A stretch of 64,000 nucleotides of DNA from Gammaproteobacteria bacterium Ga0077536 (GCA_001464935.1 LNEL01000055.1:83056-147055), one strand, 5' to 3'. Positions 3,080 to 32,099 are shown, counted from the first letter of the stretch. A program made the numbers and translations. The notes: generated from the letters alone by a model not told the origin.

Positions 3080-3562
3080 TCAAGGCGGAATGCCGAGCTT
3101 CGGTCGCCAGATCGCGATCACCACGTTCGCGATCGACAGCACCATGATCGTCCACATGCCGCCCCATTCACTGCTGAGAATTTTCTCCATCACCGCCGGA
3201 TCGCCGGTGCCTTCGGCGAGCCTGGCCGACATCGAGGCCGCGCGCGTTGCCTGCGACTGCACGGTCGCGAGCGTGCCTTCGAACATGCCGAGGCCGAGCA
3301 CGGCTTTCAGCAGCACCCAGCCCTGATGCAGATACGGCTTGTGAACGATCATCGCGATGAGACCGCTGAGCAGCACCAGCGCGAGCGACGGCAGCAGCAG
3401 CCACTTGCAGACCATCAGCATGCCCTGACGCATCGCCGCGAGTTCGGCCAGCCCGGCCGGTGCGTTGACCGCCAGCACCATGTTCGCTGCGATCGCGCCC
3501 ATCAGCCCCACCGCGCCGAGCGTATGCAGAATCTTCACGGCACGTTTCAAGCGTAAGGACAT
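3080..3562 (-). CDS. DUF2269-family small membrane protein
   Basis: Internal ATG (M116 of track ORF 3080..3907) preceded by a GGGGGTG RBS. Four predicted TM helices (MSLRLKRAVKILHTLGAVGLMGAIAANMVLAV...). The upstream part of the ORF is Arg/Ser-rich junk. Confidence 0.6.
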   Translation of the reverse strand: MSLRLKRAVKILHTLGAVGLMGAIAANMVLAVNAPAGLAELAAMRQGMLMVCKWLLLPSLALVLLSGLIAMIVHKPYLHQGWVLLKAVLGLGMFEGTLATVQSQATRAASMSARLAEGTGDPAVMEKILSSEWGGMWTIMVLSIANVVIAIWRPKLGIPP

Positions 3563-14256: not shown

Positions 14257-14907
14257 TCACGCCGGATCGCGCGGTGTCAGTCCGAGCACGATGTCGAATC
14301 GGGCCTGCCATTCGCCGGGCGCCGTATCGCCGGCCGCGATGAACGGCACGATCACGGCGCGGCGCTGCGCCTCGTCGGCGATGTGATTGAGCAGCCAGTC
14401 GCGCGCGTTCAGGGCCTCGCCTGCGACATACAGCTGCGTTGTCAGCAGCGGCTGTCGCCGATGCCATACCCGGCAATGGATGTGCGGCGCGCGTCCCGGA
14501 TAAGCCACGGGCCGGAGGGTGCGAAACGCATATTCGCCGCGCGCATCGGTGCGGGTGTGGCCGTACCCCTGAAACCCGCGGTCGCGCCGCGCGGCGCGCG
14601 CACCCTCGGCCGGGTGCAGGTAAATGCCGTTGGCATCGACCTGCCAGATCTCGACCACGGCCTGTGCGAGCGGCCGGCCGTTCAAATCGAGCACCCTGCC
14701 GGTCAGGTGCGTGACCTCCCCCAGCGCCCGCGCTGCGGCAGCCCCAACCTGCACGAGATCGTGATCGCGTTCGGACGGCAGCGGGTCGGGATAGAACGGC
14801 CCTTCGGCCTGGCGCGGCGTCGCGACAAGCGCCGCGCCCATGGCGCCCGCCGGCACCAGCAGGCCGGCGGCACCCGCGATGAAGCGACGCCGGCTGAGCG
14901 GTATCAC
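14257..14907 (-). CDS. Tat-signal intradiol ring-cleavage dioxygenase-like protein
   Basis: GTG start overlapping the stop of the upstream gene (GTGA). N-terminal SRRRFIAGAAGLL twin-arginine motif. Dioxygenase-like core (EGPFYP...HIH...). 216 aa, embedded inside a 550-aa junk ORF of the track. Confidence 0.6.
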   Translation of the reverse strand: MIPLSRRRFIAGAAGLLVPAGAMGAALVATPRQAEGPFYPDPLPSERDHDLVQVGAAAARALGEVTHLTGRVLDLNGRPLAQAVVEIWQVDANGIYLHPAEGARAARRDRGFQGYGHTRTDARGEYAFRTLRPVAYPGRAPHIHCRVWHRRQPLLTTQLYVAGEALNARDWLLNHIADEAQRRAVIVPFIAAGDTAPGEWQARFDIVLGLTPRDPA

Positions 14908-19593: not shown

Positions 19594-19980
19594 TCAAACC
19601 GGCTCCGGCGGACGCTTCGTGCGGGCCGGTTTCGCAACGCCGGCCTGCGGGCTCGCCGGCGCCACGCCCTGCGCGAGGCGCATGCGCAGTTCGCGCAGTT
19701 CGACCTGCACCGAGGCCAGCGCGTCCTCGACCTGGCCGAGGCGATCGCTGACGTCGAGCACGTCCTGGCGCGACGGCAGGTTCAGGTTCGCGAGGTACTG
19801 CGCCATCGATTCGCTGAACATCCGGTGCGAATGCAGGGCTTCCTGCATGTAGCGTCCCATGCCCTTCGAAAAGCGCTCGTCCCCCATCATGTCCGTCATC
19901 GCCTGGCTCCAGGCCTTCTCGGACTTCACGAACCACTCGCGCCACAGACGCACGGGGTTCAGTTGTTCGTCATCACTCAT
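19594..19980 (-). CDS. small coiled-coil protein translationally coupled to phaC (candidate PhaE/PhaR-like synthase partner)
   Basis: 128 aa with a strong GAGGAGGAG RBS. Its stop abuts the phaC start, and its start overlaps the hydrolase stop (ATGA). Confidence 0.5.
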   Translation of the reverse strand: MSDDEQLNPVRLWREWFVKSEKAWSQAMTDMMGDERFSKGMGRYMQEALHSHRMFSESMAQYLANLNLPSRQDVLDVSDRLGQVEDALASVQVELRELRMRLAQGVAPASPQAGVAKPARTKRPPEPV

Positions 19981-20816
19981 GGCTCCTCCTCGTTCCGCGC
20001 GCCGGCCGGGTGCACGCGCTGGGCGAGCCGCCGGGCTATCACGCGATACACCTCAGGGTGGAACACCATCCCGAGATGCGTGCATTTCACTTCGTTGTTG
20101 TGTCTTGAATCTTCTTCGATGCAACTCGACCATTCGGCCACGCCGTCCGTCTTCGAATAGACGGCGAACTGCGCCACCGGACGCGGCTGCGGCTGGAGCA
20201 TGTGGCGAACGAAACTGCACAGGCAGTGTCCGGTGCCGCAGGAGGCGTGCAAATTACGTCCGACCACGCCGCTCTGGTTCAGCTTCAACTTGTCCCAGAT
20301 CCCGACGACCGCCGGATGCGCCTTCACCATCGAGCGAAACGGCGACCCCAGCGTGATGATGCGGTCGAACAGCGCCGGCTGTTCCTGGATCAGGCTTTTC
20401 GCCAGCATGCCGCCGAGGCTGTGGCCGATCACGCGCACGCGCTGGCCGGACTCCTCGCGGATGCGTCGCGCCCGCTGCAGCAGCGCCCGCGCGGTGCGAT
20501 CGGGACAGTCATTGTTCCAGACGATGTTCGACAGATGCGACTGGTAGCCGATGCGCTTGAGCCACCGGTGCAGTTCGAGCATCAGGTAGTCGCCGGCCAT
20601 GAAGCCCGGGATCAGCAGCACCGGTTCGCCGGCACCGCGCTGACAGCCGATGCCGTAGAACACCGGCGAGAATCGCAGCTTCATCCAGTCCATCCCCCAC
20701 ACTGCTTCCCGCCACAGGGGCGTCAGCGTGTGCTGGACCGAAGGATCGTGGGCGAACGGATTGTCATAGTCATCGACCAGACCGTCCACCTCGAGGTTGT
20801 CGTTGGGCTTGTTCAT
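19977..20816 (-). CDS. alpha/beta hydrolase (lipase box GHSLGG)
   Basis: 279 aa; first gene of the phaC operon. Confidence 0.75.
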   Translation of the reverse strand: MNKPNDNLEVDGLVDDYDNPFAHDPSVQHTLTPLWREAVWGMDWMKLRFSPVFYGIGCQRGAGEPVLLIPGFMAGDYLMLELHRWLKRIGYQSHLSNIVWNNDCPDRTARALLQRARRIREESGQRVRVIGHSLGGMLAKSLIQEQPALFDRIITLGSPFRSMVKAHPAVVGIWDKLKLNQSGVVGRNLHASCGTGHCLCSFVRHMLQPQPRPVAQFAVYSKTDGVAEWSSCIEEDSRHNNEVKCTHLGMVFHPEVYRVIARRLAQRVHPAGARNEEEP

Positions 20817-20890: not shown

Positions 20891-21291
20891 TCAGGCGACT
20901 TTCGGCCAGAACGCGCTGAGCTTGCGCGCGGTCTCGCTGATGTCGCTCGAGGACTTCATCGCGCCATCGAACACCTTGCGGAATTCGGCGGCCACGTCGG
21001 CCTGTTCCTGGAACAGCGTCTTCGCGAGCGACATGCTGCGTTCCTGGGCCGCGGTGGCGGCTTCCATCATCGCCTTGACGTTCGCGCTGTAGTCGCTCGG
21101 ATTGGCGGCGATGCGCTTGCTGGTTTCGAGCGCTTCACGCTGGCTTTCGAGCAGCGCGCCGAGCAGGGTTTCGTTGACGCGGGTCGCGCGCTCGCGGGTT
21201 TCCTTGACCGAGGCGGCGAACTTTTCGTGCGCCGTGCTCAGGTAGTCGAGGTAGCTGCAAAGGGCTTCGCTGGGGTGTTCTGGGTCGTCAT
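20891..21291 (-). CDS. phasin family protein (PhaP); 5' end apparently frameshifted
   Basis: Phasin-like helical repeat region in the track ORF (YLDYLSTAHEKFAASVKETRE...). The only RBS-preceded ATG (~21291, AGAGGAAG upstream) is in the -1 frame and stops after 17 codons. The in-frame ATGs further upstream sit inside the promoter. See finding. Confidence 0.5.
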
Positions 21292-21367
21292 GTCGGTCTT
21301 CCTCTGGGCACCCGGGGTGCCGTTGGTTGGATAATGTGAGAGAATTTTTGCTGCACTGCAAACCTGG

Positions 21368-21402
21368 TTGACATATATATGCGGTTTGCATATAGGTGTC
21401 AA
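21368..21402. promoter_or_regulatory. interleaved face-to-face sigma70-type promoters for padR (+) and the phasin gene (-)
   Basis: TTGACA-TATATATGCGGTTTGCA-TATAGG-TGTCAA. The + strand carries TTGACA/17 nt/TATAGG; the - strand carries TTGACA/17 nt/TATATA. The spacers fully overlap and the stretch is near-palindromic. Confidence 0.5.
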
Positions 21403-21440
21403 CGCTCCAGGCGCTTTTTTTTTCCCATGACGAGGTGTCA

Positions 21441-21842
21441 GTGAACGAACAGACTTCAGCCGGCCCCGGCCTCAGGCCCAGCGGCGACATGCTGACAGCC
21501 CACCTCCTCGCCCTGCTGAAGGGCTGGTCGGCATATGGCTACGAATTGACCCAGCGGCTCGAAGCGGCCGGTTTCGGCGACCTCAACAAGGGCTCGGTGT
21601 ACCGCCTGTTGCGCCAGATGGAACGCAGCGGGCTGGTGTCCTCGAGCTGGGACACCTCCGCCGACGGCCCCGCGCGCCGCGTGTACTGCATGACCCAGGC
21701 TGGCAGCCTCTTTCTCAACAACTGGTTGATTTTCCTCGACGCGCACCGCCGCGGCCTCGAGCAACTGGCCGGCCTTGGCGGCGGCCCTGCCGCCAACAGC
21801 GACAGCCCGGGCGGCAGCGCCGGACGAAAGAAGACCTCATGA
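21441..21842 (+). CDS. PadR family transcriptional regulator
   Basis: MLTAHLLALLKGWSAYGYELTQRLE winged-helix N-terminus. Start is either GTG 21441 or ATG 21489. The stop overlaps the next gene (ATGA). Confidence 0.7.
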   Translation: MNEQTSAGPGLRPSGDMLTAHLLALLKGWSAYGYELTQRLEAAGFGDLNKGSVYRLLRQMERSGLVSSSWDTSADGPARRVYCMTQAGSLFLNNWLIFLDAHRRGLEQLAGLGGGPAANSDSPGGSAGRKKTS

Positions 21843-23572
21843 GCGTCATTGTCGAAAAGAATGTCGCCGTCGCCCTGCGCGACGGCATCACGCTGCGCGC
21901 CGACATCTACCGGCCGCAGGCCGAAGGCCGCTACCCGGTGCTCCTGCAGCGCACGCCCTATAACAAGGAGCTGTGGCCGATCACGGCGATGACGCTCGAC
22001 CCGATCCGGGCCGCCGCCGCGGGTTACGCGGTCGTGATCCAGGACGTGCGGGCGCGCTGGGCATCCGAAGGCGACGTGTTCTTCCCGTACCGCGACGAAG
22101 GCGACGACGGCTACGACACCCTCGGCTGGGCCGCGGCGCAACCGTGGTCCAGCGGCGTCGTCGGCTGCTACGGCCTGTCGTACATGGGCGGGACCTCGTG
22201 GCTGGCCGCGGCGTCGGGCCATCCCGCTTTGCGCGCGATTTCACCGACGACCGCGCCGAACGATTTCTACCACGATCACTTCTGGCGCGGCGGCGCGCTG
22301 AACATCGGCCTCCTGGCCATGTGGGCGATGCGCGCGATCGGTCCCGCGGCGCTGATCCGCTCGCGGCCCCAGCCGGCGGATTTCTTTCCGCTGCTCGTGC
22401 AGTTGATCGACGACATCGACGATTTCGAGGAAGTGCTGCGCGCCCTGCCGCTCGATCGCTTCGCGCCCGGCCGGCCGGACGACGACCGCTTCGTGCCGTT
22501 CTTCTATGAATTCATGCGCCACCCCGAGCCGGACGCGTGGACGCGCAGCCTGCTCGTCGCCGGCAGGCACCATCAGGTCAAAGTCCCGAGCCTGTCGATC
22601 GCGGGCTGGCACGATCTGCTGCTGAACGCGGATCTGCAGCATTTCCGCGCGATGCGCGACACTGCCGGCAGTGACGAGGCCCGGCGCGCGAGCCGGCTCG
22701 TGATCGGCCCGTGGGCGCACGCGATGTTCCACAATGTCGTCGGTGATCTCGACTTCGGGTTCCGGGCGAACGGGATGCTGCTCGACCTGAAGGAAGACCT
22801 CACGCGCTTTCAGCTGCGCTGGTTCGATCGCTGGCTCAAGGCGCAGCCGAACGGCATCGACGACGAAGCGCCGGTCAAAATCTTCGTGCAGGGCGCGAAC
22901 CGCTGGCGCGACGAACACGACTGGCCGCTGTCGCGCGCGCGCTATCGGCCGTGGTATCTGAATGGCGACGGCAGTTTCGCGCGCGAGCGGGGTCGCGACG
23001 ATGGGGAGGCGCGCAGTTTCGTCTATGACCCGGCCGATCCATGCCCGACCAGCGGCGGCGGCCTGCTGTTGCCGGCCCAGTACACGCCGGGACCGGTCGA
23101 CCAGCACCGCATCCTCGGCCGTCGCGATGTGCTCGACTACACCTCGGCTGTCCTCGCCCGCGATCTGGAGGTCACCGGCCCCGTGCGCGCCGTGCTGCAC
23201 GTGACGACCAGCGGGCGGGACACCGACTTCATCGTTAAATTGTGTGATGTGCATCCCGACGGACGCTGTTACAACGTCTGTGATGGCATCCTTCGCCTGT
23301 CGTTCCGCGATGGCCAGACGCGTCAGGCGGTGGAGCCCGGCGAGCGCCTGGCGATCGAGGTCGACCTGTGGTCGACGTCGATGGTGTTCAAGGCAGGCCA
23401 TCGCTTGCGCGTGCTCGTGACGTCCAGCGATTTTCCGCGCTACGACCGCAACCCGAACACGGGCGAGCCGGCGCATCGCGCGACACGCTTCGAACCCGCG
23501 CTGCAGCGCGTGTTCCACACGGCAGATGGCGCGTCGCACCTGATCCTGCCGGAGATTGAGTCGACAACCTGA
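21839..23572 (+). CDS. CocE/NonD family hydrolase (S15 X-Pro dipeptidyl-peptidase-like)
   Basis: 577 aa with N-terminal LLQRTPYNK... and GxSYxG (GLSYMGG) around the nucleophile. Confidence 0.85.
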   Translation: MSVIVEKNVAVALRDGITLRADIYRPQAEGRYPVLLQRTPYNKELWPITAMTLDPIRAAAAGYAVVIQDVRARWASEGDVFFPYRDEGDDGYDTLGWAAAQPWSSGVVGCYGLSYMGGTSWLAAASGHPALRAISPTTAPNDFYHDHFWRGGALNIGLLAMWAMRAIGPAALIRSRPQPADFFPLLVQLIDDIDDFEEVLRALPLDRFAPGRPDDDRFVPFFYEFMRHPEPDAWTRSLLVAGRHHQVKVPSLSIAGWHDLLLNADLQHFRAMRDTAGSDEARRASRLVIGPWAHAMFHNVVGDLDFGFRANGMLLDLKEDLTRFQLRWFDRWLKAQPNGIDDEAPVKIFVQGANRWRDEHDWPLSRARYRPWYLNGDGSFARERGRDDGEARSFVYDPADPCPTSGGGLLLPAQYTPGPVDQHRILGRRDVLDYTSAVLARDLEVTGPVRAVLHVTTSGRDTDFIVKLCDVHPDGRCYNVCDGILRLSFRDGQTRQAVEPGERLAIEVDLWSTSMVFKAGHRLRVLVTSSDFPRYDRNPNTGEPAHRATRFEPALQRVFHTADGASHLILPEIESTT

Positions 23573-23591
23573 GCGAAGAGGACCGATTGCC

Positions 23592-24503
23592 ATGCTTGCC
23601 TACCTGCTGCCCGGACTGTTCGCGCTGCTGGTGGCAGGCTACTTCATCGAGCCCACCCCCTACGTCAACACCGCGCTGCGCCTGCAGCGCCGGCTGGCCG
23701 GTCTGAAAACGAAGTCGGTCAGGATCGGCAGACATCATGTGGTCTACATGGAGGGCGGTCGCGGCGATCCGCTGCTGCTGCTGCACGGTTTCGGCGCGAC
23801 GCGCGACAACTGGCTGCTGCTCGCGAAGGAACTGACGCCGCACTTCCGGGTGATCGCACTGGACCTGCCCGGCTACGGCGAGAGCGACCGGCACCCGTCG
23901 GCGGTGTACTCGCTCGGCGCCCAACTGAAGCGGATCGATCGCTTCGTGCGCGCGCTCGGGCTCACGCGTTTTCACCTGGGCGGCAATTCGATGGGCGGCT
24001 ATCTGGCCGCGCATTACGCGCGCGAACACCCCGCCGAAGTGCAGAGCCTGTGGTTGCTGGCTCCGGCCGGTGTGGTCAGCGCCGAACCCAGCGAAGTGCT
24101 GAGCGCGCTGGAACGCGGTGAGAACCCGCTGCTCGTCAACAGCGAGGCTGATTTCGCCCGCGTCATCGACCTGTGCTTCGTGCGTCCGCCGTACACGCCG
24201 AAGGGGTTCCTCAAGGTGTTCGCCGCGCGCTCGATGGAGGACGCCGAATTCCACGCGCGACTGTTCGACGAACTGTTCCGCGACCCGCGCTCGTTCGAGG
24301 ACAGCCTGTCAGGGATGACGACGCCGACCCTCATCACCTGGGGCGAACGCGATCGCATCCTTCACGCCTCCGGCGCGCCGATCCTCCACGCCCTGCTCCC
24401 GGCCAGCGAACTGCACCTGATGCCCGACACGGGGCACGTGCCAATGGTCGAGAAACCGCGCGAATCCGCCGCCGCTTTCCTGAAATTTCAGCGCGGCGGC
24501 TGA
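23592..24503 (+). CDS. alpha/beta hydrolase
   Basis: HGFGA...GNSMGG motifs. Start at M13 after GAGGAC. Confidence 0.8.
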   Translation: MLAYLLPGLFALLVAGYFIEPTPYVNTALRLQRRLAGLKTKSVRIGRHHVVYMEGGRGDPLLLLHGFGATRDNWLLLAKELTPHFRVIALDLPGYGESDRHPSAVYSLGAQLKRIDRFVRALGLTRFHLGGNSMGGYLAAHYAREHPAEVQSLWLLAPAGVVSAEPSEVLSALERGENPLLVNSEADFARVIDLCFVRPPYTPKGFLKVFAARSMEDAEFHARLFDELFRDPRSFEDSLSGMTTPTLITWGERDRILHASGAPILHALLPASELHLMPDTGHVPMVEKPRESAAAFLKFQRGG

Positions 24504-31962: not shown

Positions 31963-32099
31963 GCACTGCGTTCCAGGTCAGGGCGCCGGCCCCCTGTGCG
32001 ACGACACGCAGGGGGCCGGCGACGGCCGCCGCCCTCGACCCCGCGCGTGCCGCCATTGAGCTGTGTGTGCGCTGCCCGATTGACGCGATAATCGCGGCC

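Follow-up and report, generated by a model that had tools for sequence, protein, structure and literature searches.

PhaQ-type control of phasins has been described in Bacillus and Priestia only, in which PhaQ represses both phaQ and phaP and responds to PHB (reviewed in PMC9049629 and PMC8390425). PhaQ has also been reported to bind its own promoter and to interfere with the binding of RNA polymerase at that site (PMC9049629). In the searchable literature, we found no description of PhaQ-type control, or of a link between PadR and phasins, in Gram-negative bacteria. The stoichiometry of phasin and repressor is thought to be solved in Bacillus by selective mRNA decay.

In E. coli, the facing and overlapping promoters of bioA and bioBFCD are under the control of one operator, bioO, that covers both. 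The facing promoters of the Ecl18kI R-M system compete directly (PMC2760811), and ca. 14% of the E. coli promoters overlap an opposite promoter (PMC3167631). As to operators of the PadR family, the AphA box of Vibrio reads ATATGCA-N6-TGCATAT (PMC3440409), and the PadR operator of B. subtilis is an 18-bp dyad, CNTGNA-N6-TNCANG, that is read via the major and minor grooves (PMC5728393).

The padR and phasin-like genes and their surroundings

The window examined here (i.e. the whole 64-kb stretch of DNA that was analysed) carries a padR or phaQ-like repressor gene on its plus strand (21441 to 21842), encoding 133 aa from a GTG start with a GAGG Shine-Dalgarno sequence 5 nt upstream. Its product scored 67.3 bits against the Pfam PadR model (PF03551; cut-off of 27), placing it within the PadR family, and matched 45 PDB chains of the PadR type (best match 2esh, TM0937). 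The best NCBIfam model was TIGR02719 (repress_PhaQ), with 87.9 bits against 37 bits for the next model, and TIGR02719 was also the best model for all 32 of the 32 homologues tested. Because the TIGR02719 score of the window protein is below the cut-off of 139.35, however, functional equivalence to PhaQ is not assured. Upon a tblastn search of a plasmid collection, the top-scoring match of the PadR protein was the annotated phaQ of Priestia megaterium, with 43% identity over the whole winged-helix and dimerisation region (E 3e-30). The recognition helix (G-x-VYR-x-LRQ-x-E) and the wing (WDTSA-x-GPARR-x-Y) are near-identical in both proteins.

A profile of PadR homologues subsequently yielded 43 loci from species-representative genomes, 42 of which include upstream DNA. 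Nearly all of these loci stem from uncultured Gammaproteobacteria, including Pseudohongiella. In roughly half of them padR is followed by cocE, as it is in the window, where the CocE/NonD-family hydrolase gene (21839 to 23572, plus strand; TIGR00976, 445 bits) overlaps the padR stop codon by an ATGA (21839 to 21842) and is translationally coupled to it. The alpha/beta hydrolase encoded after cocE (region 21839 to 24503) weakly resembled intracellular short-chain PHA depolymerase (81 bits vs a cut-off of 300), and the repressor's own operon may carry PHA-related hydrolases.

Divergently from padR, the minus strand carries a phasin-like gene (20891 to 21291) that is disrupted in the window near 21273/21274 by a 40-bp deletion. 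Its ATG at 21291 is followed by 17 codons and a stop, and the main frame runs to 20891 without a start of its own. Comparison with the closest relative (L044, of which the PadR is 95% identical to that of the window and the palindrome discussed below is identical) revealed that 40 bp (GGGCGCGTTCCGGGGAGGGCACGGCGCCAAGCTTGGACTT) are missing just after codon 7, out of frame; with these 40 extra bases, L044 has a called product of 146 aa. Homologues of the phasin-like protein are likewise intact and start with M[ST]T... Either the 40-bp loss is genuine, having disrupted the gene between short GG repeats, or it stems from an error in the assembly. Immediately upstream of the Shine-Dalgarno sequence of the phasin-like gene, an inverted repeat GGCACCC/GGGTGCC (21307 to 21321), identical in L044, could form a hairpin in the 5' UTR.

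The window's phasin-like protein matched neither Pfam nor NCBIfam models, and matches to Phasin_2 were sub-threshold and confined to 3 of 12 homologues. It has no relative in the PDB and is unrelated to Bacillus PhaP. The name "phasin gene", as used in the preliminary description, is therefore not supported as stated, since it draws on context and on sub-threshold Phasin_2 similarity, and the window's copy is frameshifted.

Downstream of the phasin-like gene, and also on the minus strand, lie genes for an alpha/beta hydrolase (19977 to 20816), a PhaR_Bmeg/PhaE-like synthase subunit (19594 to 19980) and a class III/IV-like PhaC (18461 to about 19600), the latter two scoring below the NCBIfam cut-offs. 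The order of phaC, phaR-like gene, hydrolase, phasin-like gene and divergent padR is kept in nearly all loci with enough DNA. The gene context of PhaQ, in which a phasin and a two-subunit PhaR/PhaC-type synthase lie alongside the regulator, is thus found here as well, with the identity of the "phasin" being contextual. Some of the metagenome bins concerned bear the record titles Hydrogenophaga intermedia (L003) or Klebsiella pneumoniae (L005 and L027); their pha/padR loci group with those of uncultured Gammaproteobacteria, which suggests that these bins are mislabelled or contaminated.

The dyad between the divergent genes

In the gap between the phasin-like gene and padR, the window contains a 35-bp sequence, TTGACATATATATGCGGTTTGCATATAGGTGTCAA (21368 to 21402), that can be read as TTGACA TATATA TGCGGTTTGCA TATAGG TGTCAA. 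Reading the window sequence directly bore out the preliminary description as to this sequence, its two TTGACA hexamers and the 17-bp spacers on both strands, and also as to the position of each -10 directly beside the -35 of the opposite promoter (21374 to 21379 beside 21368 to 21373, and 21391 to 21396 beside 21397 to 21402). The sequence forms an inverted repeat with 16-nt arms (21367 to 21382 and 21388 to 21403), in which 14 of 16 positions are complementary across a gap of 5 nt, and the region is AT-rich, with a GC content of 0.38 vs 0.665 for the whole window. The 26-position palindrome pattern occurs once in the window, vs 0 occurrences expected from shuffled sequence.

Other inverted repeats with 16-nt arms (at least 14 of 16 positions paired, gap of at most 10) are located near 31983, 40967, 41126, 59741 and 62721. 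Including the palindrome at 21385, this amounts to 12 matches at six places, vs ca. 1.3 expected from simulated sequence, and the five other places are probably terminators or other sites. The inverted repeat TGCAAACC/GGTTTGCA (21357 to 21364 and 21383 to 21390) was dropped as a candidate, as close relatives keep merely TGCAA/TTGCA.

Across the related loci, conservation centred on a 27-bp dyad, CA-N2-TA-N2-TGC-N5-GCA-N2-TA-N2-TG (21372 to 21398, with its centre at 21385), which is the proposed site of a PhaQ-like PadR dimer. Its 19-bp core (21376 to 21394) reads TATATGC-GGTTT-GCATATA in the window and TAKRTGC-N5-GCAYMTA as a family consensus, and matched this consensus at all 10 fixed positions in 40 of the 42 loci and at 9 of the 10 in the other two. 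Every locus of ca. 12 kb carries exactly one copy of the dyad, each time in the gap between the phasin-like gene and padR and with no second copy elsewhere, and the 19-bp core likewise has a single perfect copy in the window. A copy of the core with one mismatch (TAAATGCCGTTGGCATCGA; 14621 to 14639) lies inside overlapping long ORFs, and was rejected as a further operator copy because a single such copy is consistent with the 0.35 per window expected by chance.

Among the 38 non-redundant loci, positions -9, -8, -5, -4, -3, +3, +5, +8 and +9 of the dyad were invariant and positions +4 (36/38) and +2 (35/38) nearly so, with symmetric conservation reaching further outwards to an A at -12 (33/38), a T at +12 (37/38), a C at -13 (21/38) and a G at +13 (34/38). 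The outermost TTGA/TCAA bases are weakly conserved across the family (0.2 to 0.9 bits), and the TTGA bases are perfect on both flanks in all six members of the window's clade (the window, L001 to L004 and L044). The conserved unit is thus the 27-bp dyad including the inner CA of each TTGACA, and part of the apparent conservation of the -35 elements is operator conservation. Moreover, the invariant TGC/GCA triplets fall in the promoter spacer and would not be kept by promoter function alone, which supports the presence of an operator.

The length and complementarity of the palindrome arms, together with a T9 run 13 nt downstream on the plus strand, might also hint towards a nucleic-acid structure (hairpin, terminator or cruciform) instead of a protein site. 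However, conservation is base-specific, and those arm positions that vary do so without compensatory changes and lose their complementarity (±6 being paired in 13 and ±7 in 12 of the 43 sequences). Furthermore, the palindrome has no match in Rfam, and the T-run is not conserved even in L044, the closest relative. A known RNA family or hairpin was therefore rejected, and we regard the chance that the palindrome acts as a structure as negligible. The unpaired variable arm positions and the lack of an Rfam match instead argue for a site that is bound by a dimeric protein.

With its base-specific conservation beside a regulator gene, the 19-bp core has the properties of a PadR-type operator (a dyad of ca. 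18 to 20 bp), and its size falls within the range known for the PadR family (PMC5728393). The proposal in the preliminary description that a PadR operator is located here is consequently supported, but its choice of CATATATATG (21372 to 21381) as the palindromic core did not hold: this decamer corresponds to the left half of the 27-bp dyad, of which the centre is at 21385 and the invariant bases are TA..TGC-N5-GCA..TA.

Dyads of the same type were found in the phaQ promoters of two Bacillaceae loci, namely TAGGTGT-AAATT-ACACATA in P. megaterium (L045; chance expectation of 0.03 per locus) and TAGGTGT-AAATT-GCACTTA in Bacillus sp. N5-665 (L046; chance expectation of 0.07 per locus). Both are exact instances of TANNTGY-N5-RCANNTA, each being the sole exact match in ca. 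7 kb, and both lie on the -10 of a TTGACA-N17-TAAATT promoter, 36 to 47 bp upstream of the phaQ start codon. Specifically, TAGGTGTAAATTACACATA is located at 3372 to 3390 of the P. megaterium locus, 39 to 57 nt upstream of the phaQ start codon (the CDS running from 3429). The gene order in both loci is phaC, phaB, phaR and then the divergent phaQ-phaP. Together, the 42 proteobacterial loci (exact matches in 40, a single mismatch in the other 2) and the two Bacillaceae loci fit a testable operator consensus, TAKRTGY-N5-RCAYMTA. On the basis of these sequence comparisons, the dyad is most likely a PhaQ-type operator.

A second palindromic box, CTGCACTGCAA (21351 to 21361; family consensus YTGCR-N-YGCAV), would lie within the phasin-ward transcript at roughly +7 to +17, and is a candidate PhaR/AniA-type site. 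It fits the published PhaR/AniA motifs of Alphaproteobacteria, i.e. CTGCNNNGCAG and YGCRNYGCR (PMC12542648). The box occurs at fixed offsets from the dyad (-34/-35 and -39 to -43), with a second copy at +26 to +28 in some loci, and besides the window is carried by L001-L003, L005, L007-L008, L012, L015, L021-L024, L026-L027, L031, L033-L034, L036, L038-L041 and L043. It is absent in the Pseudohongiella clade. A tblastn search for a PhaR gene in the 64-kb window and the loci, using an approximate C. necator PhaR query, revealed nothing convincing, which is weak negative evidence. A second, PHB-sensing control through this PhaR-type box is only a lead.

The PhaR-like box, 24 bp to the left of the dyad, and a GntR gene located 3 kb away in several loci might point to a different factor (of the PhaR/AniA type, or the nearby GntR type) binding the dyad itself, with PadR acting elsewhere. 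Nevertheless, the dyad deviates from the PhaR motif, is kept in the Pseudohongiella clade, where neither a PhaR-like box nor a neighbouring GntR gene is present, and is found again in front of genuine phaQ genes of Bacillaceae, making it highly improbable that another factor is the one that binds it.

Proposed promoter elements facing each other across the dyad

The phasin-ward promoter elements on the minus strand consist of a -35 TTGACA (21397 to 21402), of which the inner CA is shared with the operator, and a -10 TATATA (21374 to 21379) at a 17-bp spacing, of which the first four bases belong to the left operator half-site; the inferred start is near 21367. In the opposite direction, the padR-cocE-ward elements on the plus strand consist of a -35 TTGACA (21368 to 21373) and, again after a 17-bp spacer, a -10 TATAGG (21391 to 21396) that overlaps the right half-site, with an inferred start near 21403. 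Both -35 elements match the consensus at 6/6 positions, and both -10 elements match TATAAT at 4/6 positions without its conserved final T. A strict sigma-70 consensus scan called no promoter at 21368 to 21402, both -10 elements lacking the final T, and was replaced by a PWM scan combined with comparative co-variation. In the PWM scan, each strand scored 9.3 bits, slightly more than the 9.0 bits that mark the 99th percentile of 181-bp pieces drawn at random from the window. Of the "good -10" that had been claimed for each strand, this PWM score is in support, but the 4/6 match without final T and the negative strict scan are not. TATAGG in particular, without its final T, is predicted to be an intrinsically weak -10.

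A T9 run (21415 to 21423; A9 on the minus strand) is located 13 to 21 bp upstream of the phasin-ward -35, and could boost the phasin-ward promoter as an UP-element-like A-tract. The corresponding T-runs are shorter in L002-L004 and interrupted in L044.

According to the PWM scan of the 43 sequences, the phasin-ward promoter overlaps the dyad in every locus, and does so in two fixed registers. In register 1, found in 29/43 sequences including the window, the -35 TTGACA is at +17 to +12 and the -10 lies in the left half-site; five loci (L013, L028, L029, L032 and L039) have TATAGT at this phasin-ward -10 and score 15.5 bits. In register 2 (14/43), the promoter appears to use a -35 TTGCAY within the dyad and a TAnnnT -10 at -24 to -29. 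The register-2 loci are L021-L024, L031, L033, L034, L036, L038, L040-L043 and L006, and their TTGACACC-TAGGTGC...GCATATA module has the opposite orientation compared to loci with only a phasin-ward TTGACA (e.g. L005, L008 and L026). The mirror-image padR-ward promoter, in the register of the window, is found in 18/43 sequences, its TTGACA being carried by the window's clade, by L011, L016, L025, L030 and L035, and by 8 loci from the second main PadR clade of the neighbour-joining tree described below. It seems that promoter elements were rebuilt while the operator stayed fixed. In ca. three quarters of the related loci the operator is kept and the face-to-face pair is absent, indicating that the pair itself is not the conserved function.

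The half-sites co-vary with the promoter elements. A half-site read TATA in 39 of 45 cases in which a TTGACA (at least 5/6) is present 17 bp upstream on the same strand, vs 0 of 37 cases without it (Fisher test, 2e-17, a value that ignores phylogeny). More specifically, TATA in the left half-site is confined to sequences with the right-hand TTGACA, and GCATATA in the right half-site to sequences with the left TTGACA. A rough neighbour-joining tree built from the PadR core indicated at least 4 independent switches of this association. All members of the window's clade carry TTGACA on both flanks and TATA in both half-sites, arguing that both facing promoters are used. The two overlapping, opposed sigma-70-type promoters that had been proposed earlier are thus plausible, and the co-variation supports that both are real in the window's clade.

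It could nevertheless be that only the phasin-ward promoter is active in the window, with the left TTGACA and the TATAGG being by-products of a symmetric operator and padR being read from elsewhere or at a very low level. Consistent with this, TATAGG lacks the final T and was missed by the strict scan, the CA/TG at ±12-13 are operator bases, and in about half of the related loci a padR-ward promoter cannot be recognised in the window's register. However, the operator does not need the outer TTGA bases, given their low information content across the family, yet these are perfect on both sides in 6/6 members of the window's clade, and the GCATATA right half-site appears only together with a left TTGACA through repeated independent switches. 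We therefore deem it unlikely that the padR-ward elements are mere by-products.

Predicted co-repression and comparison with known systems

The sequence, its conservation across genomes, its match to the phaQ dyad of Bacillaceae and the co-variation of -35 and TATA elements together point to what is probably a PhaQ-like PadR operator within two facing promoters, which would be co-repressed until PHB titrates the repressor away. A PhaQ-like PadR dimer would bind the 27-bp dyad at 21385 through the TATATGC/GCATATA half-sites and the outer CA/TG contacts, and in this clade the TTGA on both dyad flanks would create a facing pair of sigma-70-type promoters. Of this pair, one is predicted to drive the phasin-like gene, probably together with the downstream PHA synthase genes, and the other to drive padR-cocE. 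Since the operator would cover both -10 elements, the spacer common to the two promoters and the two innermost bases of each -35, a bound repressor would be expected to keep RNA polymerase off both promoters simultaneously, resulting in autoregulation of padR-cocE as well as control of the phasin-like gene. Such an operator in the regulator's own promoter is consistent with the overlap between the dyad and the inferred padR promoter, and with the occurrence of this dyad type in the two Bacillaceae phaQ promoters. By analogy with PhaQ of Bacillus and Priestia, PHB granules would probably titrate the repressor away and thereby derepress both directions.

The preliminary description had instead proposed a toggle-like architecture, in which the orientation of RNA polymerase makes transcription in both directions mutually exclusive and anticorrelated. 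The two promoter footprints do overlap completely, and competition of facing or overlapping promoters has been documented elsewhere (PMC2760811 and PMC3167631). However, a toggle needs mutual repression or a factor with a one-sided bias, whereas the sole conserved site is symmetric, covers both promoters equally and is not paired with a second regulator gene. In addition, the facing pair is absent from most loci (ca. three quarters) while the operator is invariant, and the regulator and phasin genes of Bacillus share a transcript, which makes them positively correlated. Having one operator over both -10 elements makes co-repression with autoregulation likely instead, and we consider it very unlikely that mutually exclusive transcription is the main function of this site. 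In the derepressed state of the co-repressed arrangement, only one polymerase would fit at a time, and relative promoter strength would then set the ratio of phasin to repressor. Such polymerase competition would be a secondary effect that is physically reasonable and has precedent.

A broader scenario, which we put forward tentatively as a possibility, is that the PhaQ-type operator serves as a fixed anchor in both Bacillota and Gammaproteobacteria, around which promoters have repeatedly been rebuilt in at least three registers: with the -10 on the dyad centre (Bacillaceae), with the -35 inside the dyad, or with the -35 outside the dyad and a half-site holding the -10. For the clade of the window, the facing pair and the PhaR-type box might then place the phasin/synthase operon under two PHB-sensing repressors, with polymerase competition at the derepressed site yielding high phasin and low repressor/hydrolase levels. 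The loci offer a naturally occurring series of promoter elements shifted around a fixed operator, and a compact model of how constraints are shared between operator and promoter sequence. They moreover point to a gammaproteobacterial lineage, mostly uncultured and with Pseudohongiella among its members, in which a class III/IV-like PHA synthase cluster is under predicted PhaQ-type control; no such cluster under PhaQ-like control was found in the searchable literature. The consensus could be of use in the annotation of PHA regulons and the engineering of PHB-responsive promoters.

When compared to other described systems, the half-site ATATGC(A) is identical to that of the Vibrio AphA box, which is a dyad bound by a PadR-family dimer, as is proposed for the dyad here. 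The spacing is three bases shorter here (ATATGCA-N3-TGCAYMT), however, and AphA is a two-domain PadR protein with a role in quorum sensing and no link to PHA. With the PadR operator of B. subtilis, the dyad shares a palindrome of 18 to 20 bp and the (here predicted) symmetric reading by a winged-helix dimer, but the half-site differs, and B. subtilis PadR responds to phenolic acids and controls padC. Comparison with PhaR/AniA boxes concerns the neighbouring box and not the palindrome: this box agrees with the motif and follows shortly after the inferred phasin-ward start, where PhaR is positioned at some of its targets, although the approximate PhaR query detected no such gene in the window or the loci and the box is missing from one whole clade. 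The overlapping promoters resemble those of Ecl18kI, where a bound protein or polymerase excludes the other and promoter competition contributes to the output; the Ecl18kI operator blocks one promoter only, whereas the symmetric operator here covers both, as bioO does in E. coli.

The closest resemblance is to PhaQ and phaQP of P. megaterium. In both cases a PadR-family repressor gene lies beside a phasin or phasin-like gene and a PhaR/PhaC-type synthase cluster, and a 19-bp dyad with a 7-5-7 layout lies over the regulator's own promoter (a predicted one here), so that autoregulation is to be expected. In Bacillaceae, however, phaQ and phaP form one operon with a single promoter and the dyad is centred on its -10, whereas the phasin-like gene and the regulator are divergent here and would share one operator via two facing promoters. 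At position ±3, the dyad has C/G here, T/A in P. megaterium phaQ and T/G in Bacillus sp. N5-665. Further differences from P. megaterium are the proteobacterial host, the phasin-like protein that is unrelated to Bacillus PhaP, and a PadR that scores below the TIGR02719 cut-off. Judged from its sequence, the locus thus appears to be a divergent, proteobacterial form of a known PHB-responsive repressor circuit rather than a new regulatory principle.
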